Under the pieces are notes generated by a model. That model was not told the DNA's origin and did no database searches. It saw nothing but the letters and a program-made list of their open reading frames with translations. A DNA stretch of 64,000 bases, taken from positions 244,470 through 308,469 of the forward strand of contig OY730298.1 of NCBI GenBank assembly GCA_963422595.1, given 5' to 3'. This document shows positions 2,277 to 53,147 of this stretch, in pieces (the stretch's first letter is position 1; each line of letters begins with the position of its first letter). This DNA is from Gammaproteobacteria bacterium (lineage in GTDB: Bacteria; Pseudomonadota; Gammaproteobacteria; UBA4575). A program made the translations under genes and the position numbers.

Positions 2277-2420
2277 GATTGGGTTATATTAAGGCAAATT
2301 ATTGGTCATTGTTGAATATTTAAATTTATCGGCGTGAACGGGATGAACAGGATAATCGTAATAATTGTTATTCAGTACCGGCACCGGGGCCGGTCTCTAT
2401 GTGGGTAATTCTGTTTTAGC

Positions 2421-3734
2421 ATGATTATGGCCATGGCTGTATTATCTGAATATTCAACAAGTGATGCTGACCATGGCTTTGCCAGGCAGGATGTTATCAG
2501 GGCCGCGGATCAATGCGTGATGTGTGGCTTGTGTCTGCCGCATTGTCCAACCTACGCGGTGGCGCGCAATGAAGCTGAATCTCCGCGTGGGCGTATCGCC
2601 CTGGTGCGTGCCTTACATGAGGGTGTATTACCGCCGACCGCAACTTTGGTACGGCATCTCGATCAGTGCGTGGGTTGCCTGAGTTGTCAGACGGTGTGTC
2701 CGGCAAACGTGCAATATGAAATGATTCTTGATGCCGGACGCGCCGTTACCCGCAAACGACACTCCTGGCTATACCGATTGAAGCAGTCGCTGCTGTTTTT
2801 GGTGTTAACTCAAACCCACGTCCGCAGTTGCGTTAAAAACGTACTTGGTATGTGTCGTTTGCCGGGTATTTACCAGTTATTAATCCGGCTTGCCACAAAA
2901 TTTCCGCACAGGTTGCGCGTATTCAGGTTCATTCCACCACCACAAAAAGCCGATTTTGCAACCACCGTTGCCAAATTACCGGCGACTAATGCTGATGTTG
3001 AAACCCGGGTGGCTCTGATAAATCCGTGCGCGAGTGAGCTGTTTGCAGATACCAGCAGGGCGGCAGCGGAGGTTGTCCTGCGAGCCTTACGCTGCACCGT
3101 AGTGGTAATAAACCCGGTGTGCTGCTGCGGTGCCTTGCACCAACACAGCGGTTACTTGAAACAGGCCAGGCTGTTAATGCGTAAGTTCTCGCGCGCCTGC
3201 TCCGAGCAGCACTGTGACGTATTGGTTTCTATGGCTACCGGCTGCGGTGCGCACTTAAACCGTTATCCGCAATTATTAAACGAGGCCGCGACAGCCAGTC
3301 TCATCCACAAGCATATGGATGTTAATGCCTTTGTGTTGCAGGAGATTAATAAGCACGACTTGAAATTTAAGCCGCTGCCAAGGCAGGTGTTTGTCCATAA
3401 ACCCTGCACTCAAAGCCTGGCTGCTGAAAACGCGCAGGTGGTGGAGACGTTGCTTAACAGGATTCCGCGTATCAAACTCAGATTTTTTCAGGACGAATTG
3501 AGTTGTTGTGGCGCCGGCGGCATCAATACGCTCACGCAGGTGCAACTTGCGGATAAGTTAATCCATAATAAAATTGCCGAATTACAATGCAGCGATGCCG
3601 CGTACCTGGTCACCAGTAACGTTGGCTGCGCACTGCATTTTCGGACGCAGTTACGGCACCGCAACCAACCCATTGTCGTCTGCCACCCGATCAGCCTGTT
3701 GGCGCAACAACTGCTATACTCTGCACGTGCGTGA
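2421..3734 (+). CDS. Fe-S oxidoreductase of the GlcF / heterodisulfide-reductase (CCG domain) type
   Basis: The N-terminus has two 4Fe-4S ferredoxin motifs (CGLCLPHCP and CVGCLSCQTVCP). Cys-rich CCG-like motifs follow (CCCGA, CTQS, SCCGAGG), as in the glycolate oxidase Fe-S subunit GlcF or GlpC. Confidence 0.75.
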   Translation: MIMAMAVLSEYSTSDADHGFARQDVIRAADQCVMCGLCLPHCPTYAVARNEAESPRGRIALVRALHEGVLPPTATLVRHLDQCVGCLSCQTVCPANVQYEMILDAGRAVTRKRHSWLYRLKQSLLFLVLTQTHVRSCVKNVLGMCRLPGIYQLLIRLATKFPHRLRVFRFIPPPQKADFATTVAKLPATNADVETRVALINPCASELFADTSRAAAEVVLRALRCTVVVINPVCCCGALHQHSGYLKQARLLMRKFSRACSEQHCDVLVSMATGCGAHLNRYPQLLNEAATASLIHKHMDVNAFVLQEINKHDLKFKPLPRQVFVHKPCTQSLAAENAQVVETLLNRIPRIKLRFFQDELSCCGAGGINTLTQVQLADKLIHNKIAELQCSDAAYLVTSNVGCALHFRTQLRHRNQPIVVCHPISLLAQQLLYSARA

Positions 3735-19628: not shown

Positions 19629-19827
19629 GTTGACTCCTTATGTAGTTAGCCAGTCAGATATTTTTGTTTATTTTATGACTTAAATAGCTGAAGATATACC
19701 CCTTCCATGAGAACGCTATCCTGACGTGCCTGCGGAACCTCGGCTGTTTTCGCCACCCCAACAGTTATGCCGCTTTATCCTGTATATATTCTTTTGAACT
19801 ACACATTATCCTGGTTACCAGGTTATT

Positions 19828-20511: not shown

Positions 20512-20928
20512 ATGACCCCTGAGTTAATCGGAATTTTAGGCGTTGGCGCTGCCCTTGCCGGGCTGATTTTTACTGGTCAGCGAAACCTGGGACAACGCAT
20601 CAGTGAAACTAACCAGCGCATCAGTGAAACTAACCAGCGCATTGATCGGCTGGACGCTCGCATTGATGAAACCAATCAGCGCATGGATGATATTAACCAG
20701 CGCATTGATGATATTAACCAGCGCATTGGTCGGCTGGACGTTCGCATGGATGATACTAACCAGCGCATTGATGATATTAACCAGCGCATTGATGATACCC
20801 ACCAGCGCATTGACCAGCTGGAAGTTCGCATGGATGGACGGCTGCGGGACGTAGAGCATGGCATGGCCAGGCTGGAAGGTTTACTTGAAGGCCTGCGCGA
20901 AGCAATTGCCGGCAGACGTGCTGCATGA
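20512..20928 (+). CDS. membrane-anchored coiled-coil protein built from tandem heptad repeats
   Basis: An N-terminal TM helix (LIGILGVGAALAGLIFTG) is followed by twelve 7-aa repeats (QRISETN / QRIDDIN variants), each encoded by one 21-bp unit, and then a C-terminal helix (GRLRDVEHGMARLEGLLEGL). Confidence 0.6.
   Translation: MTPELIGILGVGAALAGLIFTGQRNLGQRISETNQRISETNQRIDRLDARIDETNQRMDDINQRIDDINQRIGRLDVRMDDTNQRIDDINQRIDDTHQRIDQLEVRMDGRLRDVEHGMARLEGLLEGLREAIAGRRAA
20593..20844 (+). repeat. 12 tandem copies of a 21-bp unit (consensus CAGCGCATTGATGATATTAAC), in frame within the CDS
   Basis: Direct reading shows units at 20593, 20614, 20635 and so on up to 20824. Several units are identical or near-identical (20677, 20698 and 20761). 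Confidence 0.9.
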
Positions 20929-28533: not shown

Positions 28534-29355
28534 TCACATGCTTGCTAAAGAGGAACCATAAGCGGGTTCCTGAAAATCAGGCTGGTACCTTACCGCAATA
28601 CCTTGTGCTGCCAGGTGTTTTTTTGCTTCTTGTATTGAGTATTCTCCGAAATGAAAAATGCTGGCGGCTAATACCGCGTCGGCTTTGCCTGTTGTTACCC
28701 CTGCGGCTAAGTGCTCCAGATTGCCGACGCCACCAGAGGCGATAACCGGAATACTAACGGCCTCGCTTACCGCTCGGGTTAGATCAACGTCAAAACCCAT
28801 CCTGGTGCCATCACGATCCATGCTTGTCAACAGGATTTCTCCGGCCCCGTAATTTGCCATTTTTATGGCCCATTCCACCGCGTCTATGCCGGTTGCCTTA
28901 CGCCCTCCGTGGGTGAATATCTGCCATTTTAGTGGATCACCTTGTCTGCTTGCCTGCCTGGCGTCAATGGCTACCACGATGCACTGTGAGCCCACTTTTT
29001 CGCTGGCTTGGCGAACAAACTCCGGATTAAATACAGCTGCGGTATTAATACCAACCTTGTCCGCGCCGGCATTTAACATGGTACGTATGTCTTCAATCCT
29101 GCGGATTCCTCCACCCACGGTAAGGGGCATAAAAACCTGCATGGCAACTTTTTCAACCACGTGCGCCATAGTGTCACGATTATCCGAACTGGCAGTAATG
29201 TCCAAAAATGTGATTTCATCGGCGCCTTCATAATCATAACGCTTAGCGACTTCTACCGGATCCCCCGCATCTCTTATATTAACAAACTTAACGCCTTTCA
29301 CCACCCGACCGGCATCAACGTCTAAGCATGGGATAATACGTTTTGCGAGAGGCAT
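28534..29355 (-). CDS. hisF: imidazole glycerol phosphate synthase, cyclase subunit HisF
   Basis: [14 protein letters not shown] start, (beta/alpha)8 fold, [15 protein letters not shown]. Confidence 0.95.
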
Positions 29356-29469
29356 TTGGAATCAGGAATTAGGAATTAGTTTTGCCTGTTGTGGTTTTCC
29401 GGATTGTCCCGAGGAGCAGGAAGATGCCGGATTACCACGTGGTGTGGCTGCAAGTGTTTGCGAAAGTAT

Positions 29470-32289: not shown

Positions 32290-32388
32290 GTTTTCAAAGC
32301 GCACTTTGTTTTTACTGCTGATGACTTAAAATTTTTTGAAACAATCTTCGTGGTTTTCAAAGCGCACTTTGTTTTTGCTGCTGATGAC
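32290..32388. repeat. 36-bp direct repeat duplicating the 3' end of the RDD gene (copies at 32290-32325 and 32353-32388, one mismatch)
   Basis: GTTTTCAAAGCGCACTTTGTTTTT(A/G)CTGCTGATGAC occurs twice. Copy 2 encodes the last residues VISSKNKVRFEN. Copy 1 lies immediately 3' of the stop codon and would encode VISSKNKVRFEN*. Confidence 0.85.
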
Positions 32389-32802
32389 AACCGTGCCGGC
32401 TAACTTATCGTGCCAGCCTTGCTTTCTGGGATCAAACGCTACCCAAATAATACCGATTCCCAGGAATAAAAATGCCGGAATATAGGCAAAAAATCTGCCC
32501 ACATATTGCCCCTTTGAAGGCTTTTCGCCGTCGTAAGCATCCACAATTTTTGCCCGTATGGCCATTTTCCCCGGCGTGGCTTGTAGACGTATCCAGAAAA
32601 ATATTATGGCAACGGATGGTAATACCACGCTGACAATAAAATCCACAAGCCCTGCAAAGACGGTGTCGTAATGCCAATAATCCTCGCCATAAATCATCAG
32701 CAGGATAGGCAGGGTGATTATAAAAATTAAAATCGAGTCAATAATGGATGCCGCAACTCTTACCCAGAAGCCAGCATATTCAAACTCATCTTTATGTATC
32801 AC
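32326..32802 (-). CDS. RDD family membrane protein
   Basis: 158 aa with the RDD-family layout (YAGFWVRVAASIIDSIL..., multiple TM helices, conserved R.D.D-like spacing). The assignment is moderately confident. Confidence 0.65.
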   Translation of the reverse strand: MIHKDEFEYAGFWVRVAASIIDSILIFIITLPILLMIYGEDYWHYDTVFAGLVDFIVSVVLPSVAIIFFWIRLQATPGKMAIRAKIVDAYDGEKPSKGQYVGRFFAYIPAFLFLGIGIIWVAFDPRKQGWHDKLAGTVVISSKNKVRFENHEDCFKKF

Positions 32803-41979: not shown

Positions 41980-43110
41980 ATGCCCCAAGCCGAAGAATGG
42001 TCAGCACTCGTCAACGTGGATCAACTTGGGCCTGTAACATTTCAAAAATTGTTGGGCCGGTTCGGTTCGCCGGCAGATATTTTGCGCGCGCAGCGCAGCG
42101 AACTGCAAACCGCAGGCATCTCAGAGCGAGTCATTGACGGGATTCTGGCCCCGAATGAAACCGCCATTGCGCGAGATATGGAGTGGCTGCAACACGATTT
42201 GCATCACCTGGTTACTATACAAGACGCCAGCTACCCGCAGTTGTTGCGACAAATTTCAAATCCTCCAATGGTGTTGTATGCTCATGGGGAAGCACAATTG
42301 CTTACGCGATTATTGTCTGATCCGCAACTGGCAATTATCGGTAGCCGTAACGCCAGTGCCAATGGCACTGAGATGGCCACCGTGTTCGCACGAAAACTTG
42401 CTCAGGCGGGACTGGTAATTACCAGCGGATTAGCCAGTGGTATAGATGGTGCCGCACATCGCGGCGCGTTACAAGCGGAGCTTGGGAAAACCATCGCGGT
42501 AGCGGCATGCGGGCTTGATCGCGTCTATCCCGCGAAGCATCGGGAATTAGCAGAGCAAATTGTGCAACGCGGTGTAATCATTTCCGAGTTCCCGATCGGC
42601 AGGCTTCCAAAGCCGGGGCATTTCCCACGCCGCAATCGTATTATCAGCGGCTTGAGTCTGGGCGTGCTGGTAGTTGAGGCTTCAGTTAAAAGTGGTTCAT
42701 TAACCAGCGCACGTATGGCCGGCGAACAAGGCCGTGAAGTGTTTGCGGTACCAGGTTCCATACATAACCCGCTGGCAAAAGGTTGTCATATGCTGATACG
42801 TAATGGCGCCAAATTAGTGGAAACGGTGGGAGATATTTTAGAGGAATTCAAAAATCATATTGATGCCGATGAGGCATTGACTACTGTAGATGCGATTGAC
42901 GTCAATGCGGTAACCGGCGAGCCCGCTGACGACCCTGAGCATGAAAAGATTTTACATAGCATGGGCTACGAACCTATAAGCATTGATAATTTGGTTGAGC
43001 GTTGCGGACTGAGGGTGGACGTGGTGTCTTCCAGCCTGTTGATTATGGAGCTTAGCGGGCAGGTTTCTCATAACGGCAATGGTGTGTACGTGCGTGCTTA
43101 TAAGGCCTGA
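41980..43110 (+). CDS. dprA: DNA-processing protein A (DprA/Smf)
   Basis: Rossmann-like DprA core (GSRNAS, ITSGLASGIDGAAHRGAL, ISGLSLGVLVVEA). Divergent from def, as in E. coli. Confidence 0.9.
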   Translation: MPQAEEWSALVNVDQLGPVTFQKLLGRFGSPADILRAQRSELQTAGISERVIDGILAPNETAIARDMEWLQHDLHHLVTIQDASYPQLLRQISNPPMVLYAHGEAQLLTRLLSDPQLAIIGSRNASANGTEMATVFARKLAQAGLVITSGLASGIDGAAHRGALQAELGKTIAVAACGLDRVYPAKHRELAEQIVQRGVIISEFPIGRLPKPGHFPRRNRIISGLSLGVLVVEASVKSGSLTSARMAGEQGREVFAVPGSIHNPLAKGCHMLIRNGAKLVETVGDILEEFKNHIDADEALTTVDAIDVNAVTGEPADDPEHEKILHSMGYEPISIDNLVERCGLRVDVVSSSLLIMELSGQVSHNGNGVYVRAYKA

Positions 43111-48311: not shown

Positions 48312-48442
48312 ACCTGATGATATAAAATATAATCTATCTGCATTCGCTTTCCACTAAAGTGCCTCAATTTTGAAACGCGCAGTCAACCCATGCAGGTACA
48401 GGCCCCGTGCCGACCCGACAATTATGGAAGTATGAAAATCTT

Positions 48443-49282
48443 ATGTTGCAAAATGATGAAGCGGATCGATACGCGGTCATAGGCAATCCTGTCGCGCATA
48501 GTAAGTCACCTGAAATTCACTCTATATTCGCCGAACAAACTGGCGAAAACACGTCTTACGAAAAAATATTAGCTGAAAAACATGGCTTTACACGGTCTGC
48601 CAGACAATTTTTTAATGCCGGTGGTAAAGGCTTAAACGTGACCTTGCCATTTAAGACGGACGCCTGTGAATTCGTTGACCGACTTACGGACGTTGCAGGC
48701 CGTGCCGGTGCCGTGAACACTATCATGCGCCAAAGAGACGGCAGTTATCTGGGCACTAATACTGATGGTATTGGCTTATTACGCGATTTGAAAAAGACCT
48801 TAAGTCTACAGTTGTCAGGCCAAAAAATCCTGATAATAGGGGCTGGTGGCGCAGTACAGGGAATTGTGGAACCGCTGCTGAATGAGCAACCTGACGAGAT
48901 CCTGATCGCCAATCGCACGTTGCATAAAGCGGTGGCGATCGCAAAGAATTTTCATAGTATTGGCAAGGTGCGAAGCTGTAGCTTAGACCAAATTCCGCTT
49001 AAGCGTTATGACCTCATTGTGCATGCCACTTCGGCGTCACTACAGGATGGCGCGCTAACGCTGCCACCCGACATTGTCGGCTCACAAACCTGTTGTTATG
49101 ATCTTTTGTATAGTGACGCAGACACCGTATTTATGCGATGGGCGAAGCACCGCGGTGCTGCAAACGTGGTAGATGGGTTCGGCATGTTGCTGGAACAGGC
49201 GGCAGAATCTTTCTATTTGTGGCGGGGGAAACGCCCGGATACCGTTATGGCGTATAATTATCTACGCCCCAAATGTGTTTGA
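48443..49282 (+). CDS. aroE: shikimate dehydrogenase
   Basis: YAVIGNPVAHSKSP..., GLNVT.PFK, IIGAGGA. The probable start is ATG 48443. Confidence 0.9.
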   Translation: MLQNDEADRYAVIGNPVAHSKSPEIHSIFAEQTGENTSYEKILAEKHGFTRSARQFFNAGGKGLNVTLPFKTDACEFVDRLTDVAGRAGAVNTIMRQRDGSYLGTNTDGIGLLRDLKKTLSLQLSGQKILIIGAGGAVQGIVEPLLNEQPDEILIANRTLHKAVAIAKNFHSIGKVRSCSLDQIPLKRYDLIVHATSASLQDGALTLPPDIVGSQTCCYDLLYSDADTVFMRWAKHRGAANVVDGFGMLLEQAAESFYLWRGKRPDTVMAYNYLRPKCV

Positions 49283-50181
49283 TGATACACGCTTTTAAAT
49301 CTCCACACGCGGGTTTTTCAGGTCGGTTGATTGCGTATGCGCAGTTGATACGTTTGGATAAGCCGGCAGGCATTTTTCTGCTTCTCTGGCCTACCCTGTG
49401 GGCCTTGTTTATTGCTGCCCAGGGTATGCCTGACGTGCGCCTGTTAATAGTGTTTATCTGCGGTGTGGTTTTGATGCGCGGCGCGGGCTGCGCTATTAAC
49501 GATTACGCGGATCGTGACATTGACTCTTTTGTAGCACGTACACAGCAACGACCGCTCGCGCGTGGTGCCATTCGGCCAGGCGAGGCGTTGGTGGTTTTTG
49601 CAGTGCTCTTACTTACCGCCGCGCTGCTGGTACTGCTGTTTTTGAACCGTCTGACTTTATATTTTGCCATAGGCGCTGCCTTGCTCGCGGCCAGTTACCC
49701 TTTTATGAAGCGGTTACATTTTTTACCGCAGGTACACTTGGGTGTGGCATTCGCGTGCTCCGTTCTCATGGCGTTTACGGCGGTACACAATGCCTACCCA
49801 CCGCCGCTTGCGTGGTTAATATTTGCCTGCGCGGTACTCTGGACGACCGCATACGATACTATGTATGCCATGACGGATCGTCATGAAGACGTAAAGATCG
49901 GGGTAAAATCAACGGCAATTTTATTCGCGTCTCTGGATAAATTTATGGTTGGATGTATGCAGTTACTGGTTATCGTTTGTCTGGTTTTAATTGGTATACG
50001 TGCAGATATGAATCAGGTCTATTATGTCGCGGTGTGTATAGGCCTCGGTTTATTCATATACCAGCAAATGCTCATTAAGCACCGTCTTCCTGATAGATGT
50101 TTCCAGGCCTTTTTGAATAACCAATATTTTGGCCTGGTAATCTTTATTGGCGTCCTCGCGCATTATTGGATGGACGGCTAA
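49282..50181 (+). CDS. ubiA: 4-hydroxybenzoate octaprenyltransferase
   Basis: UbiA prenyltransferase motifs (NDYADRDID, D..YAMTD). The ATG at 49282 overlaps the aroE stop (TGATG); an alternative ATG lies at 49273. Confidence 0.9.
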   Translation: MIHAFKSPHAGFSGRLIAYAQLIRLDKPAGIFLLLWPTLWALFIAAQGMPDVRLLIVFICGVVLMRGAGCAINDYADRDIDSFVARTQQRPLARGAIRPGEALVVFAVLLLTAALLVLLFLNRLTLYFAIGAALLAASYPFMKRLHFLPQVHLGVAFACSVLMAFTAVHNAYPPPLAWLIFACAVLWTTAYDTMYAMTDRHEDVKIGVKSTAILFASLDKFMVGCMQLLVIVCLVLIGIRADMNQVYYVAVCIGLGLFIYQQMLIKHRLPDRCFQAFLNNQYFGLVIFIGVLAHYWMDG

Positions 50182-50230
50182 GGGAGCGACGATCGTTATT
50201 CCTTACACATCCGACACGAGGCTTTTGTGT

Positions 50231-50380
50231 GGACAGGCACGGAGGGCTTGTTCCTACGAGCAACAGGTAAAGAAGAATATAAACATGGATGTACAGGACA
50301 ATTAAGAATCAGGAAATAGTAAAGAGCAGGATTAAGTAAGATTCAGGGTTTGATTATCCTGTTCACCCGGTTCATCCATG
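50231..50380. repeat. intergenic repeat element copy A (hairpin module plus catggatgtacagga module and its inverted partner), downstream of ubiA and purC
   Basis: GGACAGGCACGGAGGGCTTGTTCCTACGAGCAACAGGTAAA (50231-50271); CATGGATGTACAGGACAATT (50284-50303); inverted partner GATTATCCTGTTCACCCGGTTCATCCATG (50352-50380). Confidence 0.7.
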
Positions 50381-50410
50381 TATATTAATAAGCCGGTGGC
50401 GGCAGTGGCA

Positions 50411-51295
50411 CTAAACCGTTTCTCCAGTCAAAAGCGTGCAGGCCTCCAGATATTTTTTGCTCGTGTTTTGAATTATTTTGTGCGGTAATTTCGGGCCCGG
50501 CGGCTTTTTATCCCAATCCAGTGTTTCCAGATAGTCACGCACGTATTGTTTGTCAAAACTTTTTGGATTGATGCCCGGCATATAAGACTGTTGTGACCAA
50601 AAGCGTGAGGAATCCGGGGTTAAAACCTCATCAATCAGAGTAATGCCTTCATTTTCATCTATACCAAATTCAAATTTAGTGTCGGCAATGATGATGCCGC
50701 GCGTTAAGGCATACGCGGCCGCTTCGGTGTATATCTGCATGCTGATGTCGCGAACCGACTCGGCAACTTGCTTGCCAACCAACTTTACAATCTCATTGAA
50801 ATTTATATTTACGTCATGACTACCAGCTTTTGCTTTAGTGGATGGAGTGAATATTGGATGGTCAAGCCGCTGCGCTAGTTGCAGGCCCTTGGGAAGCCCT
50901 ACCCCGCAGATCGAGCCGCTGTTTTGATATTCCTTCCAGCCAGACCCGATTATGTGGCCGCGCACGATTGCCTCAAAAGGTAATGCCTGTAGTTTGCGCA
51001 CGATGACGCTGCGACCCTGTAACATTTGACGTTCCTGTGTATCACTGATGATTTCTTCAACAGATATGCCGCTGAGATGATTGTTGACTTTGTTCAGGAG
51101 ACGTTGAAACCAAAAATTGGAAACCTTCGTAAGTACCATGCCTTTTTTGGGGATGGGGTCAGGCAGCACTACGTCAAATGCGGAAATCCGATCAGTAGTA
51201 ACTATGAGTAAATGTTGCGAGTCGACTTCATAGAGGTCCCGAACTTTGCCCTGGTAAAGCCTGCGGAGAGAATTTAGCCCGGATTCAAATAACAT
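50411..51295 (-). CDS. purC: phosphoribosylaminoimidazole-succinocarboxamide synthase (long form)
   Basis: 294 aa SAICAR synthetase (GKVRDLYEVD, TDRISAFD, IIADTKFEFG). Confidence 0.95.
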   Translation of the reverse strand: MLFESGLNSLRRLYQGKVRDLYEVDSQHLLIVTTDRISAFDVVLPDPIPKKGMVLTKVSNFWFQRLLNKVNNHLSGISVEEIISDTQERQMLQGRSVIVRKLQALPFEAIVRGHIIGSGWKEYQNSGSICGVGLPKGLQLAQRLDHPIFTPSTKAKAGSHDVNINFNEIVKLVGKQVAESVRDISMQIYTEAAAYALTRGIIIADTKFEFGIDENEGITLIDEVLTPDSSRFWSQQSYMPGINPKSFDKQYVRDYLETLDWDKKPPGPKLPHKIIQNTSKKYLEACTLLTGETV

Positions 51296-51320
51296 GATTG
51301 ATTTTAGAACAGATTATGTA

Positions 51321-51479
51321 CATGGACGTTCAGGATAATGTGTAATTACATAGATTCAAACATGGATGTACAGGAATGTGTATTAAGAGATTCAAATATG
51401 GATTTACAGGATAGTACGTAATATTATTGTTCAGGACAGGCACGGAGCCTGTCCCTACAAGATCAACAGGTAAAATAAA
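51321..51479. repeat. three tandem ~40-bp copies of the catggatgtacagga module, then a hairpin module, filling the purC/purE divergent promoter
   Basis: Units at 51321-51360, 51361-51396 and 51397-51436. They are followed by GGACAGGC-acggag-CCTGTCC (51434-51456) and CAACAGGTAAA just before the purE ATG. These are homologous to copy A at 50231-50303. Confidence 0.75.
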
Positions 51480-51968
51480 ATGGTTGACCCACAAGTGAGC
51501 CTGATTATGGGTAGTGATAGTGATTGGTCAGTAATGCAGGCGGCAGCAGAGATTCTGCATCAATTTGATGTGTTGTACGAGAGGCGCGTGGTATCCGCAC
51601 ATCGCACACCTGATGCTATGGCGGAGTTTTCGCATTCCGCCAGGGGGCGCGGTATTCGCTGTATTATCGCGGGTGCAGGGGGTGCCGCGCACTTGCCGGG
51701 TATGGTGGCCGCCATGACGACCGTGCCGGTGCTGGGGGTGCCGGTTCCAGGTGAGCACTTGTGCGGACAGGATTCGCTGTATTCGATTGTGCAGATGCCA
51801 AAAGGCGTGCCGGTGGCGACGTTTGCCATTGGCGTGGCTGGTGCTGCCAATGCGGGGTTGTTCGCGATTGCGACGTTGGCGATAAACGATGTGGAATTAA
51901 AGCGAAAACTGGATGAATTCCGAACTTTGCAAACCTCAAAAGCACTGAGCACTCAGCTTCCGGACTAG
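51480..51968 (+). CDS. purE: N5-carboxyaminoimidazole ribonucleotide mutase
   Basis: 162 aa: IMGSDSDW, AGGAAHLPGMVAA.T..PV.GVP. Confidence 0.95.
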   Translation: MVDPQVSLIMGSDSDWSVMQAAAEILHQFDVLYERRVVSAHRTPDAMAEFSHSARGRGIRCIIAGAGGAAHLPGMVAAMTTVPVLGVPVPGEHLCGQDSLYSIVQMPKGVPVATFAIGVAGAANAGLFAIATLAINDVELKRKLDEFRTLQTSKALSTQLPD

Positions 51969-52013: not shown

Positions 52014-53147
52014 ATGATCTTGCCGGGCGCTACGCTGGGTATATTGGGTGGTGGTCAGCTGGGTCGCATGTTTGTGCATGCCGCTACCGCGATGGGTTAT
52101 CGTGTGGTGGTGTTGGACCCAAATGCTTCCAGCCCCGCAGGAGAAATCGCACATCTGCATTTGCAGGCCGGTTATGATGACGCGCACGCACTAAAGACGA
52201 TGGCGCAGCAGTGCGCAGTGGTTACTGTTGAGTTTGAAAACGTCCCCGCAAAAGTATTGTATCAACTTGAAAAAAGTTGTCGTGTACGCCCAAATGCTCA
52301 TGCAGTGGAGCTGGCGCAGAATAGAGTAAAAGAAAAACAATTTGCGCTATCTTCAGGTATCACGCCACCGCCTTTTTATGGCGTGACAACTGAACAGGAC
52401 GTGCACCGGGCTTTTCGTATTATCCACCCACCATTAATCCTGAAGACTATCAGTTTTGGCTATGACGGCAAGGGTCAGGCCGTTGTACACACACCCGAGC
52501 AAGGCATTGAAAGTTGGAAGAAATTGCATAACGTGGCATGTATCCTTGAACAAAAAATTGATTTAGCCGCTGAAATATCTGTGGTGCTTGCGCGTTCCTC
52601 CAGTGAGGAGGTGAGTATTTTCCCGGTTGCTGAAAATGTGCATAGAGACGGGATTTTGTATACCAGCACGGTGCCGGCGGGCGTGGATGATAAACTTCAG
52701 GAATTGGCAAGGTGCTGTACCCGTAAAATCGCCAGTAATCTGGATTATTGCGGGGTGCTGGCAGTTGAATATTTTACTGATAAAAACGGCAATCTGTTTT
52801 TTAATGAGATGGCTCCACGTACTCATAATAGTGGGCATTATACTATCAATGCGTGTTATACCTCACAATTTGAGCAGCAGGTTCGAGCTATCTGCGATTT
52901 GCCATTGGGTAACCCGCATGCACATAGCGCCGTTGCTATGGTGAATTTATTGGGTGATCTTTGGGATTCTGAAGATCCAGATTGGTCGAAAATTATGCAA
53001 GATGATAATGTTGCGCTGCATTTGTACGGTAAAAAAGACGCGCGCCCGGGCAGGAAAATGGGTCACTTTTGTCTGCTCGCACCGCCTGGTGAAAATCCTC
53101 AAGCCAGAGCTAAACAGCTGTTTGCACGTCTGTTCGCCAGCAGTTAA
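52014..53147 (+). CDS. purK: N5-carboxyaminoimidazole ribonucleotide synthase
   Basis: ATP-grasp PurK (ILGGGQLGRM, collinear throughout). Confidence 0.95.
   Translation: MILPGATLGILGGGQLGRMFVHAATAMGYRVVVLDPNASSPAGEIAHLHLQAGYDDAHALKTMAQQCAVVTVEFENVPAKVLYQLEKSCRVRPNAHAVELAQNRVKEKQFALSSGITPPPFYGVTTEQDVHRAFRIIHPPLILKTISFGYDGKGQAVVHTPEQGIESWKKLHNVACILEQKIDLAAEISVVLARSSSEEVSIFPVAENVHRDGILYTSTVPAGVDDKLQELARCCTRKIASNLDYCGVLAVEYFTDKNGNLFFNEMAPRTHNSGHYTINACYTSQFEQQVRAICDLPLGNPHAHSAVAMVNLLGDLWDSEDPDWSKIMQDDNVALHLYGKKDARPGRKMGHFCLLAPPGENPQARAKQLFARLFASS

Follow-up and report, generated by a model that had tools for sequence, protein, structure and literature searches.

Repetitive extragenic palindromes (REPs) of the GTAG class have stems of 6-9 bp with frequent G.T pairs, show complementary stem variants, and predominate in Gammaproteobacteria (PMC3733652; examples in PMC2817692); the GTAG tag is also published in the degenerate forms GYAG, GYRG, GTRG and GTMG (PMC3733652). 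The repeats described here lie on both sides of the gene purC in 64,000 nucleotides of contig OY730298.1, from an uncultured gammaproteobacterium. We call this whole stretch the window, and number positions from its first letter; copy counts and shuffle expectations refer to it throughout. The repeats are of two kinds, a hairpin H and a short unit M, and they are found in the two spacers that flank purC: the left spacer (50182-50410), between the convergent genes ubiA and purC, and the right spacer (51296-51479), between the divergent genes purC and purE. In our reading they are fragments of a single, locally amplified mosaic repeat that is interspersed, some 80 nt long and specific to the source lineage, and that would supply purE with its promoter, a 5' stem-loop and a ribosome-binding site; we give this reading a probability of about 0.5.

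The unit of repetition is visible in two full copies, about 78% identical to each other:

51400-51479, plus strand: full composite module at purE, with M core, AT-rich linker, 8-bp GC hairpin, CTAC and putative ribosome-binding site
2341-2420, plus strand: second full composite module, directly upstream of an Fe-S oxidoreductase (GlcF-like) gene

The order is M core GGATKWACAGGATART, AT-rich linker CGTAATAWTTRTTRTTCAG, a GC-rich hairpin of 6-8 bp, CTAC, and (A/G)GGTAA. The hairpin of the second module, H3, extends from 2375 to 2396 (GTACCGGC / ACCGGG / GCCGGTCT); the gene behind it, at 2421-3734, has its ATG at 2421 (2433 in the source annotation) and is divergent from a 2Fe-2S ferredoxin gene. 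A Smith-Waterman alignment of 2340-2399 with 51400-51457, covering the last M core, the linker, the whole hairpin and CTA, scores 31, against 11.8±2.2 for shuffled sequences (0/3000 shuffles). Since this paralogue aligns across M core, linker and hairpin alike, M and H are not independent, and the repeat unit is the 80-nt composite. The two full copies score 66-98 bits with nhmmer and with a covariance model; that model, built from both and applied to the window unfiltered, recovers only pieces already known, namely the hairpin H2 (15.6 bits) followed by the M units U1, U0 and M', all described below. A sequence-only reading of this DNA would have taken the repeats for local low-complexity sequence if they had neither copies elsewhere in the genome nor conservation in relatives: the full module at 2341-2420 is such a copy.

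Around purC, the module appears as tandem copies of 36-40 nt and as rearranged partial copies, and every copy of the repeat is extragenic. The M units are the following:

51311-51350, plus strand: U1, M unit of 40 nt, AGATTATGTACATGGACGTTCAGGATAATGTGTAATTACAT (nhmmer E 3e-7)
51351-51386, plus strand: U2, M unit of 36 nt, its core identical to the left copy U0 (18/18), with a 2-nt deletion in the GGATAAT part
51387-51433, plus strand: U3, M unit with the AT-rich linker, holding the only sigma-70-like match for purE
50274-50312, plus strand: U0, M unit of the left spacer (nhmmer E 1.6e-6)
50352-50385, minus strand: M', inverted M copy just downstream of the purC stop (BLAST E 0.001)
50294-50348, plus strand: weak CAGGA/CAGGG periodicity of 16-17 nt

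With up to 3 mismatches allowed, the M core ACATGGATGTACAGGA occurs 5 times in the window, each time at the purC locus: at 50283, 51320, 51360 and 51396 on the plus strand and at 50366 on the minus strand. The expected number is 0.46, and 0/100 shuffles reached 5. A direct-repeat search finds 4 copies with spacings of 1037, 40 and 36, and Tandem Repeats Finder reports 51320-51413 with period 36, 2.5 copies and a score of 121. The M module that the sequence-only reading had placed at 50284, with three tandem copies of 36-40 bp at 51321, 51361 and 51397, is thus present far above chance. The same reading had proposed an imperfect inverted partner of M in the left spacer, and this too is borne out: the arms 50279-50297 and 50367-50385 measure 19 nt and are 84% complementary, and M' carries in addition a 9-nt internal duplication (TGAACCGGG TGAACAGGA). 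Read by eye, the M cores differ from one another by whole 9-nt sub-repeats of the form TGWACNGGR. The CAGGA/CAGGG periods start at 50294, 50310, 50327 and 50344, and stay below the Tandem Repeats Finder threshold.

Two candidate relationships of M were set aside. Descent from a decayed 5' coding end of purE is rejected (p ~0.5). The other is a stretch upstream of metY:

19770-19814, minus strand: partial M-like stretch with an exact CAGGATAATGTGTA, not significant against background spacers

Its 14-mer is exact, but its score of 18 compares with 17 and 17 for background spacers. In a collection of contigs from other genomes, a degenerate 25-mer covering all four M copies has 13 single matches, all in other phyla, and those inspected closely are coding (a Bacteroidota outer-membrane-type protein, an ECF sigma factor). 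Viral contigs give 16 single matches to a 16-mer, which is chance level, and plasmids give no match to either spacer.

The hairpins other than H3 are listed next:

51434-51454, plus strand: H1 hairpin, GGACAGGC / loop ACGGA / GCCTGTCC, 8 perfect pairs, -15.6 kcal/mol
51455-51479, plus strand: H1 tail, CTAC-AAGATCAACAGGTAAAATAAA, where CTAC is GTAG on the other strand and AGG the putative ribosome-binding site of purE
50231-50271, plus strand: H2, imperfect hairpin (50231-50254) with tail CTACGAGCAACAGGTAAA, 15.6 bits with the covariance model
48391-48425, minus strand: H4, borderline fourth copy, GGCACGGGGCCTGT, in the hemB-aroE spacer, matching the H top pattern exactly

The string GGACAGGCACGGAG is found exactly at 50231 and 51434. 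Aligned with gaps over about 50 columns, H1 and H2 score 27, against 9.5±1.4 in shuffles; the 14 nt at the start of H and the 11 nt at its end are the same in both. Both copies named by the sequence-only reading are therefore real, and both fold. However, only H1 has the form GGACAGGC-acgga-GCCTGTCC given there for the two: H2, which begins 50 nt past the ubiA stop, reads GGACAGGC-ACGGAGG-GCTTGTTCC, with one G.U pair and one bulge, and its tail is 2 nt shorter than that of H1. The claim that the last H module adjoins the purE start codon stands: H1, taken to 51474 as in that reading, ends 5 nt before the ATG.

While the stem of H1 has 8 perfect pairs, those of H2, H3 and H4 have 6-8, with G.U pairs or bulges. 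The G.U pairs give H2 and H4 an advantage of about 5 kcal/mol on the sense strand (-10.6 and -10.4 kcal/mol, versus -5.4 and -5.9 antisense). In the 2375-2396 copy one pair is changed on both sides, from A:U to C:G, with pairing kept; among the copies, three changes gave G.U pairs. H4 is less secure than the others: with its flank it is identical to H1 at 30/37 positions (nhmmer E 0.047), and the alignment has p 0.001 as a single test, or about 0.08 after correction for some 80 spacer comparisons. The longest open reading frame (ORF) of aroE starts from a GTG at 48407; since the ATG at 48443 is the start according to both the Logan annotation (279 aa, contig L120) and the family model, H4 is intergenic. 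A role of H as a terminator is rejected, as no U-tract follows it on either strand.

The likeness to GTAG REPs lies in the hairpins. Read antisense, H1 is GTAG-GGACAGGC-TCCGT-GCCTGTCC, an 8-bp stem with a 5-nt loop and an unpaired GTAG at one end; the corresponding end is GTAG in H2, ATAG in H3 and GCAG in H4. The H hairpins have the dimensions of a REP palindrome (20-40 nt, stem of 6-9 bp), are extragenic, contain G.T pairs in their variants, and show complementary stem changes. As in the REP clusters called bacterial interspersed mosaic elements (BIMEs; PMC3733652), H stands with other short motifs and is locally reiterated in tandem together with flanking DNA. The differences are of number and of layout: the window holds four hairpins, two with GTAG, where REPs typically number tens to hundreds per genome; H has neither the inverted dimers of REPINs and BIMEs nor, among the ORFs scanned, an accompanying gene for a REP-associated tyrosine transposase (RAYT); the conserved unit, at about 80 nt, is much longer than a REP; and two H copies stand just upstream of start codons rather than downstream of genes.

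Miniature inverted-repeat transposable elements (MITEs), with the Correia and ERIC elements, offer a second comparison. The stretch 50279-50385, the copy A of the sequence-only reading, is about 107 bp long, is intergenic, and has the 19-nt, 84% complementary arms as terminal inverted repeats; like such elements, it may carry promoter-like sequence and fold as RNA. On the other hand, there is no clear duplication of its flanks, no other full copy in the window and no related transposase among the ORFs scanned, and the other copies share only sub-modules with it. The array also resembles a promoter minisatellite (variable number tandem repeat), with three head-to-tail units of 36-40 nt between divergent genes, except that the M unit belongs to a dispersed module. 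The suggestion of a REP or MITE family thus holds in part: there are copies outside the purC locus, robust at 2341-2420 and borderline at 48391-48425, and the layout is that of GTAG plus palindrome, but in the window neither an abundant family nor a RAYT gene is seen, nor a target-site duplication or a second full 107-bp copy A.

Another history would have a rearrangement at ubiA/purC duplicate part of the purC-purE spacer, leaving a purely local scar in which the M array is a simple minisatellite, with no family and no function. The left junction is indeed non-syntenic with relatives while the purEK-yhdH side is syntenic, H2 and U0 are near-identical to H1 and U2, and a search of the window with an M-unit profile gives significant E-values for the four local copies only. 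What this account leaves out is the full module 49 kb away, together with the borderline H4. Because that distant copy exists, a local scar can be part of the story only, and we consider it unlikely as the whole of it. The pattern of best matches also speaks for the dispersed repeat: H2 is closest to H1, and U0 to U2 (18/18), but M' resembles the distant copy more than it does any local unit, with 21/23 identities to 2335-2357, as seen in a window-wide repeat search and in BLAST comparisons of the spacers with the window. Such mosaic similarity suggests exchange among several members of a family rather than one local duplication.

What the analysis shows directly is how the sequences are related, that the hairpins exist and that the relatives compared have none of the module. 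How the mosaic repeat spread, and what it does at purE, we infer as follows. The module would have been copied into spacers, one full copy coming to lie directly before purE, and the 5' part of that copy would then have been amplified to three tandem units of 36-40 nt, the simplest route being slippage or unequal crossing-over. Another set, scrambled in order and consisting of a hairpin, M, the CAGGA sub-repeats and an inverted M, would have arisen in the ubiA/purC spacer, which is a synteny breakpoint, and would now persist as a rearranged remnant in the 3' untranslated regions (UTRs) of ubiA and purC. The last M unit and the linker may provide the -35 and -10 boxes of purE: the only sigma-70-like match for this gene has its -35 at 51403-51408 (TTTACA) and, after 16 nt, its -10 at 51425-51430 (TATTGT), which ends 4 nt before H1. 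Transcription of purE would start at the foot of the hairpin, so that the messenger would begin with a stabilising stem-loop, and the AGG of the H1 tail would serve as ribosome-binding site. At ubiA, the same hairpin would lie in the 3' UTR. An alternative -10 box, CAGGATAAT, was tried and rejected in our own reading of the sequence, as no copy has an acceptable -35 at the right spacing.

In this respect a published parallel is with the putative mobile promoters of PMC3488235: homologous 5' sequence stands before the non-homologous genes purE and Fe-S oxidoreductase, in the same orientation and at the same distance from the start codon. That survey sought highly similar 5' regions, conservatively, whereas the copies here are about 78% identical; moreover, promoter activity is here a prediction, and partial copies also occur in 3' UTRs.

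Several observations weigh against the dispersed repeat with a promoter role. The region has 4 sigma-70-like matches where shuffles predict 2.9, which is no excess, and the equivalent -10 box of the 2341 copy (TGTTAT) is without the key A. The 64 kb hold just two full modules and two to three partial loci. A strict scan of the window returned one GTAG-tagged intergenic hairpin only, which gives no hint of copies in the tens to hundreds, as REPs usually have. Scanning about 50 of the 63 ORFs called in the window brought up neither a RAYT nor a transposase gene, and target-site duplications are not seen. H2, in a convergent spacer, and H4, in a co-directional one, are placed as REPs usually are; the other 2/4 hairpins, H1 and H3, occupy divergent promoter spacers, an unusual place for a REP. 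Finally, from the end of the hairpin to the ATG there are 24-26 nt for purE, for the Fe-S gene and for aroE, the orientation of the module at aroE being opposite; such a constant distance suits a functional leader better than a selfish repeat.

This last point leads to an alternative in which the 80-nt module is a 5' leader RNA with two hairpins, P1 (AU-rich, GGAUARU/RUURUUC) and P2 (the GC hairpin), co-regulating purE and the Fe-S gene through a protein or a ligand, the other copies being decayed duplicates. RNAalifold predicts both P1 and P2, and 4/4 helix substitutions keep pairing, three one-sided ones in P1 and one compensatory; since only two sequences are compared, this covariation is anecdotal. 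In each of the two full copies the module is in sense orientation, and 24-25 nt separate the end of the hairpin from the ATG; the G.U pairs favour sense-strand folding in H2 and H4, and in both spacers the plus strand is more stably folded than its shuffled versions (z = -2.6 and -2.5). Against a leader, Rfam gives no significant match, the covariance model and the orthologous spacers of relatives give none either (below), the loop is not conserved (ACGGA versus ACCGGG), H4 is antisense to its flanking genes, and purE and the Fe-S gene have no obvious functional link. We hold a regulatory leader to be unlikely. The bolder form, an undescribed two-hairpin leader RNA at a fixed 24-26 nt upstream of start codons, tying purE, the Fe-S oxidoreductase gene and possibly aroE to one shared protein or signal, with the purC array as its amplified 5' half, seems to us a little less likely still.

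The sequence-only reading had also considered the M units as direct-repeat binding sites controlling purC and purEK, that is, as a DNA operator array for a transcription factor acting on the two divergent promoters. Three tandem units do fill the divergent promoter, and 5/5 of the CAGGATAA octamers in the window are intergenic, against 14% expected. Yet units spaced 40 and 36 bp apart do not keep helical phase, one copy is placed past the ends of both ubiA and purC, away from any promoter, the extra copy that matches best stands at a non-purine gene, and no relative keeps the array in its purC-purE spacer: those spacers share another element. A search of 50182-50410 and 51296-51479 for the PUR box (a 16-bp palindrome with core GCAAACGTTTGC), allowing up to 3 mismatches, gave no match in either spacer, and the total for the window is below chance. 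The claim is left without support, and we regard such an array as improbable. As the module also fronts an unrelated gene 49 kb away, it appears to be an ordinary, young family of intergenic repeats rather than a purine-specific control site. In an informal comparison with consensus sequences, none of Fur, DnaA, Lrp, TyrR, CRP, MetR, sigma-54, sigma-E and sigma-28 fits.

The motif (A)NGGA recurs twice in each M unit and once in the H1 loop, and these sites might bind a CsrA/RsmA-type protein in the purE leader, or the left spacer might be an Rsm-like sponge RNA. In the 184 nt of the right spacer GGA occurs 8 times on the plus strand and once on the minus strand, against a window mean of 2.3, and the loop ACGGA can be likened to known CsrA hairpin sites as these are generally described. 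In the window only one tRNA passes its Rfam gathering score; the best match in the region is to RsmY, at 11.8 bits with E = 5.3, far under the gathering score of 57. The GGA excess is mostly a by-product of one copied unit, the paralogous loop ACCGGG has no GGA, and in the consensus fold GGAUAAU is paired rather than looped. The tract at 29350-29379, likewise rich in GGA, is no more than a 7-nt microsatellite that runs antisense to the his operon, and the window has no csrA gene. A CsrA cluster is in our view very unlikely.

Least probable of all, and hardly to be credited, is that the M units are each translated into a peptide (MDVQDN and variants) that acts in attenuation. By our own reading, the three tiny ORFs do translate as the sequence-only reading had written them; between U0 and U1, moreover, the three differences within ATG..AAT are all synonymous third-position changes, and the 9-nt insertion of M' is in frame. 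However, the ATGs all lack a preceding ribosome-binding site, U2 carries a frameshift, two amino acids are changed in U3, a start codon is missing from that frame in the 2341 copy, and one copy falls in a 3' UTR, in an orientation that could serve no gene downstream.

We now turn to the relatives. The nearest PurC homologue is 79% identical, and relatives at 71-79% PurC identity retain the divergent purC/purEK-yhdH arrangement, with purC-purE spacers of 72-140 nt. Neither M nor H was found in these spacers (z < 2 for 17/17), and the covariance model has 0 matches over 433 kb of relatives' loci; the conservation of the array that might have been expected of a control element is absent from the orthologous spacers of every relative compared. 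At the other full copy, the relative metagenome-assembled genome (MAG) GCA_905148385.1 keeps the order rpsI-rplM-ferredoxin-FeS-COQ7, with the module absent from that spacer. A metagenome scan and contig look-ups yielded neither M nor H, and no PurC above 79% identity. Since relatives with matching synteny have no module, the repeat family is specific to the source lineage. Judged by PurC identity, though, the relatives are too distant for the absence of the module to prove that it has no function. Downstream of purC these relatives have a different gene, which makes the ubiA/purC junction a rearrangement point.

If the mosaic-repeat reading is right, a core biosynthetic operon of an uncultured gammaproteobacterium, purEK, owes its promoter, its 5' stem-loop and its ribosome-binding site to a recruited interspersed repeat, a small example of such recruitment, and the repeat also marks a rearrangement junction. 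For annotation, such repeats should not be labelled as operators or small ORFs. For the catalogue of REP-like and mobile-promoter elements the gain would be modest, with no general concept changed; the finding would weigh more only if the constant spacing from the start codon stems from a genuine leader RNA common to these genes.

The genes of the locus were identified with NCBIfam equivalog models, all scores being above the cut-offs:

49273-50181, plus strand: ubiA, convergent with purC, the junction non-syntenic with relatives
50411-51295, minus strand: purC (SAICAR synthase), NCBIfam equivalog, with repeats on both sides
51480-51968, plus strand: purE, NCBIfam equivalog, ATG at 51480
52014-53147, plus strand: purK, next after purE and followed by a yhdH-like reductase gene

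The GC content of the window is 48.5%, and no composition anomaly was found around purC. Both spacers are reproduced base for base in two Logan contigs, an independent assembly of run ERR11641160, so the repeats are not an artefact of the MAG assembly. The two contigs break at the left M unit, with an overlap of 28 nt (50290-50317), which suggests a branch of the assembly graph, due to the repeat or to strain variation. The gene purC has no recognisable Shine-Dalgarno sequence (TAAAATCAATC-ATG), either in the window (51296-51310) or in the relatives' contigs L002-L004.

The purC-purE spacers of these same contigs (L002:3824-3931, L003:4464-4571 and L004:5861-6000) share an element of about 41 nt, CACTGGTTTTATYCGGCTGTCTCAGCCAAAATGCGCGTTTC, which is not in the window and carries a small hairpin, GGCTG-TCT-CAGCC; it is a candidate for an ancestral regulatory site. 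In a relative with 75% PurC identity, some 860 nt without ORF follow purC (L004:6886-7746, also in L005 and L006). This stretch contains several GC hairpins, among them CGCAACGCATGGATGCGTTTCGCG and GGTCGCATGGATGCGATAGAGCGACC, matches no Rfam family at gathering score, and may be an unannotated RNA or another repeat cluster.

The window has other repeats. The microsatellite at 29350-29379 consists of 4.3 copies of AGGAATT in the 114-nt hisA-hisF spacer of the his operon, which is on the minus strand. At 20577-20836, about 12 tandem repeats of 21 nt (7 codons) encode QRIDDIN-like heptads inside the ORF 20512-20928, which has no NCBIfam match. A 36-nt direct repeat (32290-32325 and 32353-32388, 35/36 identical, 63 nt apart) lies at the 3' end of an RDD-family ORF (32326-32802, minus strand). 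Finally, a 23-nt inverted match (22/23) links 42488-42510, in the ORF 41980-43110, to 52076-52098, in purK, and is unexpectedly long for chance in 64 kb.

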